In this document: piece by piece, positions 15,684-16,069 of the stretch
Numbering within the stretch: the stretch's first letter is position 1
Layout: every line of letters begins with the position of its first letter
Assembly: GCA_004298345.1 (NCBI GenBank)
Contig: SCTV01000075.1
Coordinates: 1 to 27,005, forward strand
Length of the DNA stretch: 27,005 bases
Direction: 5' to 3'
Origin: Patescibacteria group bacterium
Lineage (GTDB): Bacteria; Patescibacteriota; Minisyncoccia; Phycocordibacterales; PALSA-1337
Notes under the pieces: generated by a model
Seen by the model: the letters and a program-made list of their open reading frames with translations, nothing else
Database searches by the model: none
What the model was told of the DNA's origin: nothing
Program-made: the position numbers and the translations under genes

Positions 15684-15756
15684 GCCACCTTAGCTCAGTT
15701 GGTAGAGCACCCGTTTTGTAAACGGGATCGCGTCAGTTCGACTCTGACAGGTGGCT
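15684..15756 (+). tRNA. tRNA-Thr (anticodon TGT), CCA not encoded
   Basis: Acceptor GCCACCT/AGGTGGC; D arm GCTC-AGTTGGTA-GAGC; anticodon arm CCCGT-TTTGTAA-ACGGG; T arm GTCAG-TTCGACT-CTGAC; discriminator T. Confidence 0.96.
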
Positions 15757-15876
15757 CTGAAATGAAATGGAAGAGACGCCTGTTGGAAGGGGGTCGGGGA
15801 AAATGGCGTTTCCCCGTGGAGGAAGGCAGTGAGTACTCGAGCGTGGGAAAACCGTGGGTTTCCCAGGTGACAGGAC

Positions 15877-15931
15877 GGCTCAGGAATTAAAAAAATCGCC
15901 CAGCAACGGGCGTTTTTTTAATTCCTGAGCC
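15877..15931. terminator. Long hairpin containing a bidirectional terminator downstream of the tRNA
   Basis: GGCTCAGGAATTAAAAAAA-T-CGCCC-AGCAAC-GGGCG-TTTTTTTAATTCCTGAGCC: 19 bp plus 5 bp with one bulge. Confidence 0.8.
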
Positions 15932-16069
15932 ACCTGAACAAGCCAAGCAGTTGGCTTGTTCAGAGTCGAACAGCGGAGTCATGTTTTTCTACCAAGAAAA
16001 ACGGGCGAGCTAGTGCCCAGACCAAGGTGAGCGACGGCGAACCGAGAGTCGCGGGAGACTCTGACAGGT
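15927..16069. repeat. Structured element bounded by inverted and direct copies of the tRNA-Thr 3' end
   Basis: 15927-15936 plus 15960-15971 is the reverse complement of tRNA 15736-15757, split by a hairpin. 16057-16069 is a direct copy of 15740-15752. Confidence 0.8.

Follow-up and report, generated by a model that had tools for sequence, protein, structure and literature searches.

Which process could place copies of the end of a tRNA gene, in both orientations, around a short stretch of DNA that carries no gene? This question is raised by the region downstream of tRNA-Thr(TGT) in contig SCTV01000075.1 of a Patescibacteria group bacterium (assembly GCA_004298345.1). The contig, C71 of the genome termed G000 below, was analyzed over its whole length of 27,005 nt, which is referred to as the window; the assembly amounts to 708 kb in 91 contigs with 43 tRNA genes and one tmRNA gene. 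On balance, we regard positions 15927-16069 as probably being a complete unit of a family of gene-less insertion modules of ~100-300 nt found in Patescibacteria, which would move and, in doing so, triplicate the end of their target. Modules of this family are present in multiple copies, their arms copy the local target (the end of a tRNA, tmRNA, or protein gene), they are turned over between sister species, and they pile up in tandem. Furthermore, their cores are maintained as folded single strands of tRNA polarity.

The unit begins 170 nt past tRNA-Thr on the same strand. The gene end is present three times, as the real tRNA end, as an inverted copy, and as a second direct copy; a terminator lies in the first gap and the core of the unit in the second (Table 1). 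The initial annotation of this DNA had claimed an inverted copy in two halves, a 13-bp hairpin, and a direct 13-bp copy. All of these features were found at the given coordinates, far beyond what chance would produce: two words of 12 and 13 nt have exactly two occurrences apiece in the window, where 0.13 and 0.05 are expected, and none of 100 shuffles reached two. Folding of the 147-nt stretch, compared with that of shuffles, gave z = -4.9 for the plus strand and z = -3.9 for the minus strand. The interior hairpin claimed in addition (GTTTTTCT/AGAAAAAC) was confirmed as well; it forms part of a conserved helix in the core, which is of class C as defined below.

A second module, older in appearance and with a core of class A, is located closer to the tRNA, and the two should be considered jointly. 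This second module is bordered by degenerate inverted and direct copies of the tRNA end; hence, the tRNA-Thr spacer consists of two tandem units, unit 1 and unit 2, which are split by a terminator-like palindrome. The outer arms of this palindrome merge into the flanking direct and inverted tRNA-end copies, and orthologous terminators are present in two genomes of the same genus, G001 and G002. G002 has no unit 1, and the tRNA end there takes the position of the direct copy of unit 1 relative to the terminator.

Table 1. Features downstream of and including tRNA-Thr(TGT), in window coordinates
Feature	Position	Strand	Remarks
tRNA-Thr(TGT)	15684..15757	+	ARAGORN and Rfam RF00005, 67 bits; sole tRNA of the window
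Last ~22 nt of tRNA-Thr			T loop, 3′ T-stem strand, 3′ acceptor strand, discriminator; template copied by the downstream units
Unit 1, degenerate inverted tRNA-end copy	15773..15783	+	GAGACGCCTGT, expected GAGCCACCTGT; position as inverted arm of other class A units
Unit 1, class A core	15782..15867	+	best match model R1, 107.7 bits
Unit 1, degenerate direct tRNA-end copy	15868..15881	+	TGACAGGACGGCTC; doubles as 'gene end' before the older terminator
Bidirectional terminator-like palindrome	15877..15931	none	19-nt perfect arms, inner CGCCC/GGGCG hairpin, A-tract and T-tract flanks
Unit 2, inverted arm, acceptor part	15927..15936	+	GAGCCACCTG, exact reverse complement of 15748-15757
Unit 2, S hairpin	15934..15963	+	perfect 13 bp, 15934-15946 / 15951-15963; repeat search
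Unit 2, inverted arm, T-stem/T-loop part	15960..15971	+	TCAGAGTCGAAC, exact reverse complement of 15736-15747
Unit 2, class C core	15971..16055	+	model R2, 89.9 bits; 85 nt
Unit 2, direct copy	16057..16069	+	GACTCTGACAGGT, also at 15740-15752; last 5 nt of tRNA end absent

Units behind tRNA genes and at other gene ends

Parts of the tRNA-Thr spacer recur on many G000 contigs, always shortly 3′ of a tRNA. Inspection of the 330 nt behind every G000 tRNA revealed a usual order: a hairpin composed of A-tract, stem, and T-tract comes first and is followed by the 3′ end of the respective tRNA in reverse complement; a conserved module and the same 3′ end in direct orientation complete the series. In a scripted search, 27 of the 44 tRNA and tmRNA genes proved to have their own T loop and T stem repeated in inverted orientation (at least 9 nt) within 150 nt downstream, and behind two further genes there is a module whose arm has decayed. 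The modules fall into at least four classes (A-D), class A being represented by ~10 copies in G000. The tmRNA gene (C10:13211-13800) has a complete class A unit behind it, the arms of which copy the tRNA-like 3′ end of tmRNA.

The initial annotation had proposed a non-autonomous, tRNA-targeting element that templates its ends from the target. Templating held up: the interior is multi-copy, copies lie behind other tRNAs, and their arms match those tRNAs. An interior that is single-copy, not associated with tRNAs elsewhere, and fixed across relatives had been named as the opposite outcome, and this is not what was observed. The targeting of tRNAs is not strict, since away from tRNAs the arms are copies of a protein-gene end. 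The proposed element is therefore partly supported, being largely right and too narrow.

The non-tRNA sites were found among 28 class A loci from other genomes, ~17 of which are located behind tRNAs and the remainder not. At three loci (L103, L114, and L106) the last codons and the stop codon of a protein gene are followed by its terminator, an inverted copy, the core, and a direct copy. At four others (L110, L113, L115, and L116) the arms are the antisense of the first 15-25 codons of a divergent gene, and the direct duplications reach 50-75 nt. At non-tRNA sites the arms thus copy the local gene end, which argues that the ends are templated from the target; furthermore, these sites rule out explanations that require features of a tRNA. 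The general layout can be written as x - y - x′ - core - x(-y), where x denotes ~12-20 nt, usually G+C-rich, in the gene end and y a hairpin or spacer. The class C copies inspected are nearly all located behind tRNAs. The class A units that lie upstream of and antisense to gene starts, L110 (genome G074), L116 (G152), L113 (G098), and L115 (G053), each duplicate the initial 50-75 nt of the gene. A GT4 glycosyltransferase gene is involved in two of the genomes, at identical NWGGAQ codons; the other genes encode an HMA copper-binding protein and a MurD-like ligase.

The nature of the arms was deduced from the G.U positions of tRNA stems. Here, 16 of 18 informative arms, several of them orthologous, are the reverse complement of the 3′ strand and not a copy of the 5′ strand; the arms are therefore true inverted repeats. 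The same result excluded a minihelix or degenerate tRNA gene in which the left arm would represent the 5′ acceptor and T strands of the tRNA. Next to the inverted arm stands the genomic trailer in complementary form, not the TGG expected from a CCA end, and the palindrome extends through the terminator. Hence, the arm derives from DNA or from a primary transcript and not from the mature tRNA. A primer-binding site of the retroviral type was rejected, as the 18-nt complement of a mature tRNA end including CCA is not what the arms contain and reverse transcriptase (RT) genes do not co-occur with the units. An origin of the palindrome by ligation at TTCGAA restriction sites was rejected as well, as the palindrome of the T loop does not coincide with the centre of symmetry.

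The hairpin that had been described as splitting one terminus of the element is real, but it is a conserved part of the unit rather than an accident. In 24 of 33 well-defined units a hairpin of 21-28 nt, termed S, splits the arm between its acceptor and T parts, i.e., at the acceptor/T-stem boundary. It is a conserved component of class B, C, and D units, with a stem that is variable and compensating and a conserved loop, AACTGCTT. In the window this loop is flipped (AAGCAGTT) with respect to the family, and the orthologous stump in G001 (L020/L072) is unflipped. The inversion is a hairpin-loop flip, the kind produced by template switching inside a palindrome.

The two copies differ in how well they are preserved. 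The inverted arm is well kept, its acceptor part matching the tRNA at 8/8 positions in 20 of 33 units and its T part at 10/11 or more in 28 of 33. The direct copy is often decayed, and a 13/13 match was found in 6 of 33 units. Direct repeats end at most 2 nt from the tRNA 3′ end in 41 of 69 units, and in units other than the one behind tRNA-Thr their length reaches 22 nt; in 9 of the 69, mostly tandem units, they extend at least 20 nt into the trailer, and in young units the trailer is duplicated too. The tRNA-Arg(TCG) genes of G000 (C38:7780-8060) and G002 (L038) differ in their T stems. The direct copy of the class B unit behind the G000 gene keeps the older T stem of the G002 type, and the inverted arm matches the present tRNA.

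Additionally, the word GCGAAGC and its relatives ACGAAGT, GCGTAGC, and ACGCAGT recur at the junction between class A core and direct copy (e.g., on C74, C86, C63, C38, and C83 of G000), and words of this type also occur in short hairpins between tRNA and inverted arm. GCGAAGC forms an exceptionally stable DNA mini-hairpin with a GNA triloop. At C83:1570-1730 one class A core is reversed between its arms and has ATAGCGAAGCG at both junctions. The arrangement suggests an inversion between the inverted arms.

Conserved cores and their turnover

A covariance model of class A was derived from an alignment of 17 sequences, comprising two hairpins with compensatory changes, and was applied together with the class C model R2 to 151 genomes drawn across the order. 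Class A was detected in 64 genomes from more than 50 families at 1-16 copies per genome, and class C in 55 genomes. One or both were present in 96 genomes, the two distributions being independent of each other.

The class A core is formed by two covarying hairpins that are linked by the invariant single-stranded motifs GGGGTCGG, CCGTGGAGGAA, and AACCGTGGGTT. Analysis of 52 distinct cores revealed that 99.1% of the cells pair and that 11 of the 17 pairs are changed on both sides; none of 500 shuffles reached the observed values, and slid controls came nowhere near them. On the tRNA strand, the non-Watson-Crick cells are nine G.T/T.G and one A.C. This 9:1 bias towards wobble pairs indicates that folding is preserved for the strand that runs with the tRNA, and the polarity signal fits an RNA, or a single-stranded DNA, of tRNA polarity. 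The class C core has a two-branch fold that becomes a three-way junction once the arms pair, with invariant GGAG, GTGCCCAGAC, and AGTCGCGGG; its alignment (A3) contains compensatory changes for 18 of the 26 pairs predicted. A comparison with Rfam at gathering and at permissive thresholds, made for the window and five other loci, yielded only tRNA and tmRNA and no small RNA (sRNA) family. A small open reading frame (ORF) behind the conserved GGAGG of class A was rejected, since indels between copies shift the frame and start codons are not conserved.

G000 was compared with G001 and G002 at 60 tRNA loci. Behind the Lys-TTT gene, the core is of class A in G000 and G002 and of class C in G001. 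Leu-CAA is followed by class C in G000 and by class A in G001 and G002, Gly-GCC by class A in G000 and G001 and by class C in G002, and Val-TAC by class C in G000 and by class B in both other genomes. The arms match the host tRNA in every compared case, even where the T arm differs between the species. As sister species carry different classes behind one and the same tRNA, the units apparently turn over quickly.

The history of the tRNA-Thr(TGT) locus was reconstructed in the same way. In G002 the class C unit alone is present, and it has lost its direct copy as well as an internal segment between two GAAC words; in G001 the locus is reduced to the terminator, the acceptor arm, and one half of the S hairpin. 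These decayed orthologs indicate that the class C unit was already present in the ancestor of the genus and is now decaying. The class A unit at 15773-15881 appears to be a later, lineage-specific insertion between tRNA-Thr and the old terminator. Tandem pile-ups were observed at other tRNAs as well, with the newest unit adjoining the tRNA. In more distant members of the family, tRNA-Thr(TGT) is followed by a plain long palindromic terminator. Two unit-less relatives (L022 in G030 and L023 in G012) have perfect palindromes with arms of 20-32 bp that start from the tRNA 3′ end and are far longer than usual intrinsic terminators.

Proposed mechanism and alternative explanations

In the mobile-module reading that we favor, the arms would arise during insertion, when DNA synthesis folds back or switches template at the base of the terminator palindrome. 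A first switch, the fold-back at the palindrome, would cause the gene end to be copied backwards, and a second one would return synthesis to the gene end, giving the direct-inverted-direct topology. The near-universal T-loop sequence may serve as microhomology for entry to and exit from the donor core. Such microhomology would explain why tRNAs are the commonest hosts and why, in both arms, the T loop is where tRNA-specific sequence begins. It would also account for some direct copies in which the T-loop-proximal bases look donor-derived. Proteins encoded by the element would not be needed for the triplication. The process could be started by a structure-specific nuclease, either of the host or selfish, for which small GIY-YIG genes are candidates, and the core may be expressed as a read-through RNA. 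A more far-reaching version, which we put forward tentatively and consider rather doubtful, describes re-addressable modules without fixed ends. Both arms would be rewritten at each insertion by fold-back copying and the core would be the sole heritable part, perhaps a catalytic or processing RNA or the handle of some structure-specific nuclease (e.g., GIY-YIG).

Genes that might move the units were searched for in G000 and by co-occurrence among the 151 genomes. G000 encodes one Xer-type tyrosine recombinase (on C25), and a Y1 HUH protein (PF01797), TnpB (PF07282), a serine recombinase, and RAYT are absent from this genome. A bridge-RNA system of the IS110 type was rejected: the sole PF01548 match is on C19 (1-1515), a contig of 1.5 kb with 68% GC that is foreign to a genome of 45% GC. 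C48 and C50 contain open frames of 1300-1460 aa with weak RVT_1 matches and many overlapping long ORFs; all three contigs are probably contamination of the bin. Two paralogous RTs of 340-360 aa, 52% identical to each other, are encoded at C53:145-1227 (+) and C12:15459-16475 (-). Both have the N-terminal region typical of RTs from diversity-generating retroelements and the GxxxSQ motif, which we take to be the mark of such RTs. A spread driven by RT was rejected, as RT and class A occur independently (22 genomes with both, 24.2 expected); the association of RT with class C was marginal (p = 0.04, uncorrected).

Of the 151 genomes, 108 contain small GIY-YIG genes; among carriers of class A these genes are weakly enriched (odds ratio 2.8), with p = 0.01 before any correction for the six tests made or for phylogeny. 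In genome G137, tRNA-Gly(GCC) is directly followed by a GIY-YIG ORF of 84 aa (L099; C28, ~950-1300). A 22-nt inverted repeat, composed of tRNA end and trailer, brackets this ORF, and a 12-nt direct copy comes next. The order of direct, inverted, and direct copies is that of the units, and the first gap is occupied by the gene. The small GIY-YIG gene of G000 (on C5) is not beside a tRNA and has no convincing target-derived repeats. We consider GIY-YIG a lead to the mover and not a finding.

Several points weigh against mobile modules. A mover was identified neither in G000 nor by co-occurrence among the 151 genomes, and 11 class A-positive genomes have no GIY-YIG gene. The conservation of the core across more than 50 families fits a functional RNA better than a neutral selfish repeat. 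The end of the direct copy close to the tRNA end, seen in the 41 of 69 units, is equally expected from selection for tRNA-like processing. Furthermore, the terminators flanking a unit usually differ, unlike the prediction from a single fold-back.

Some of these points lead to the main rival explanation, which is compatible with mobility and which we judge unlikely, if well short of negligible: the units would be genes for read-through sRNAs of the kind of the Escherichia coli tRNA-linked repeats (TLRs), their mobility being secondary or absent. The core would be a functional RNA co-transcribed past the tRNA terminator, the arms would pair into a perfect mimic of the acceptor/T helix, the S hairpin taking the place from which the body of a tRNA emerges, and RNase P, RNase Z, and the CCA enzyme would excise this RNA as they do for a tRNA. 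The hallmarks of TLRs, a direct copy of the upstream RNA 3′ end and dual terminators, are shared, a second terminator following the direct copy at several loci. The wobble polarity (9 vs. 1 in favor of the tRNA strand), unpaired motifs that are invariant over more than 50 families, the near-coincidence of direct-copy and tRNA ends, and the position of the S hairpin at the acceptor/T boundary also agree with processing of this kind. However, protein-gene ends give the same layout and yet cannot mimic a tRNA. The helix is frequently incomplete, as the direct copy is intact in the 6 of 33 units only and here lacks its last 5 nt; classes replace each other at one tRNA among sister species, stumps persist, and the arm puts Watson-Crick pairs in place of G.U. 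In searches of sequencing runs, the window was recovered from the DNA metagenome of its source only, as DNA contigs that give no information on strand or ends, and an informative RNA run was not found. The identical architecture at protein-gene ends and antisense to gene starts equally argues against a regulator acting as an anti-tRNA, the second proposal of the initial annotation, which we consider improbable. The inverted arm would base-pair with the last 20 nt of the tRNA, either in trans or while both are part of a read-through precursor, and the core together with a decoy direct copy would switch tRNA maturation or stability. The arm is able to pair with either copy, matches the tRNA much more closely than the direct copy does (8/8 in 20/33 and at least 10/11 in 28/33 units, vs. 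13/13 in 6/33), and the core resembles a ligand- or protein-binding junction. The fit of the arm could nevertheless stem from correction within a quasi-palindrome; in most units a terminator-like hairpin with a T-tract stands between tRNA and arm, and the palindrome continues through the non-tRNA trailer, suggesting copying at the level of DNA.

The unit could also be the scar of an integrase-mediated integration at a T-loop site, with attL and attR left after deletion of an island or phage. We hold this to be very improbable, even though a direct repeat from the T loop to the tRNA 3′ end (15740-15752 = 16057-16069) is the signature of class II att sites, tmRNA is targeted as well, and tandem accretion by the tRNA resembles island arrays. 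A scar leaves the tRNA-specific inverted copy unexplained, the conserved 85-nt cores are not integrase arm sites, and ~30 loci are implausibly many for a genome of 0.7 Mb that has no integrase besides the one Xer-type gene. The 50-75-nt duplications at non-tRNA sites and the duplicated trailer of young units also speak against it. Among ~120 loci inspected, there was no full-length integrase island bounded by these cores. A one-off local fold-back duplication that belongs to no family could by itself produce the local inverted and direct anatomy; it is refuted by a core that is multi-copy in G000 and present at many different tRNAs in 55 of the 151 genomes, and we give it practically no credence.

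Relation to known systems and significance

The searchable literature, subscription journals not covered, contains no description of these units in Patescibacteria, and no described mobile-element or RNA family was found that works in this way. The nearest printed relatives are the TLRs of E. coli, which were reportedly treated by Egan and Landy in 1978 and by Rudd in 1999. TLRs are located behind tRNA or rRNA genes between two terminators and end in an 18-19-bp copy of the upstream RNA 3′ end; there are 22 of them at ten loci, they are confined to enterobacteria, and the sRNAs RrA, RrB, and RrF are produced by read-through (PMC8144298). Like TLRs, the units follow a stable-RNA gene, contain a direct copy of its 3′ end, have terminators on both sides, and form tandem runs; they are also alike in place and strand, 27-29 of the 44 G000 genes having a unit downstream in the same orientation. 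In contrast, an inverted copy of the gene end and an arm-to-arm stem are not described for TLRs (PMC8144298). TLRs are without multi-class cores shared across families, and none is reported at a protein-gene end. Their end identity of 18-19 nt compares with 13 nt here, stopping 5 nt short of the tRNA end, and with up to 22 nt in other units. Homology to TLR, rtT, or RrB of E. coli was not detected, as no Rfam family reached threshold in the window and five other loci.

Integrative elements are a further group for comparison, and Williams reportedly described in 2002 tyrosine-integrase att sites of the T-loop class in tRNA and tmRNA genes. The units resemble such elements in that the 3′ part of a tRNA or tmRNA gene is targeted, the gene is kept intact by the duplicated end, and newer arrivals are located next to the tRNA. 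Unlike these elements, which measure several kb or more, the units have no integrase and are 0.1-0.3 kb long. Their arms differ from one tRNA to the next, one arm being an inverted copy, and they also occupy protein-gene ends with long duplications.

In miniature inverted-repeat transposable elements (MITEs) and REP/REPIN elements, the terminal sequences are fixed and the duplications are short and constant in length; REPINs are mobilized by RAYT. MITEs and REPINs share with the units that they are gene-less, multi-copy, hairpin-forming, and intergenic, often near terminators, whereas the termini of the units are target-derived and differ at each locus, the interior alone is shared, and G000 has no cognate transposase. 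Template switching at inverted repeats is known from human genomics as duplication-inverted triplication-duplication, and bacteria show template-switch mutation at quasi-palindromes. These rearrangements have the same direct, inverted, direct topology with the first junction at a palindrome, and they offer a protein-independent route to arms that match the target exactly. However, they are sporadic and carry no conserved cargo, whereas in the units a core, one of a few conserved ones, is always present at the second junction, and the event has recurred at dozens of loci in a genome. For class C group II introns, insertion takes place right after intrinsic-terminator hairpins in the orientation of the upstream gene. 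The units differ from them by the lack of ribozyme domains (an 85-nt core with no domain V), of an association with an intron-type RT, and of an Rfam match. TIGR-Tas dual guides were considered too and rejected, as they bear no structural resemblance to the units.

For annotation, the units matter because they give rise to tRNA-like fragments, to pseudo gene ends, and to breaks in the assembly of Patescibacteria genomes from metagenomes; several G000 contigs end inside units. If expressed, the cores would represent two or more new, widespread classes of structured RNA linked to the transcription units of tRNAs, and they would also provide a possible explanation for the long-unexplained TLRs of E. 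coli. In a 0.7-Mb genome, units are present behind about two thirds of the tRNA genes, a large investment under extreme genome reduction, and the units would therefore be either very successful parasites or useful. If they move as proposed, they insert beside essential genes without breaking them, without fixed ends, and without an element-encoded enzyme. Should the re-addressable version prove true, it would amount to a previously undescribed logic of transposition in the smallest bacterial genomes.

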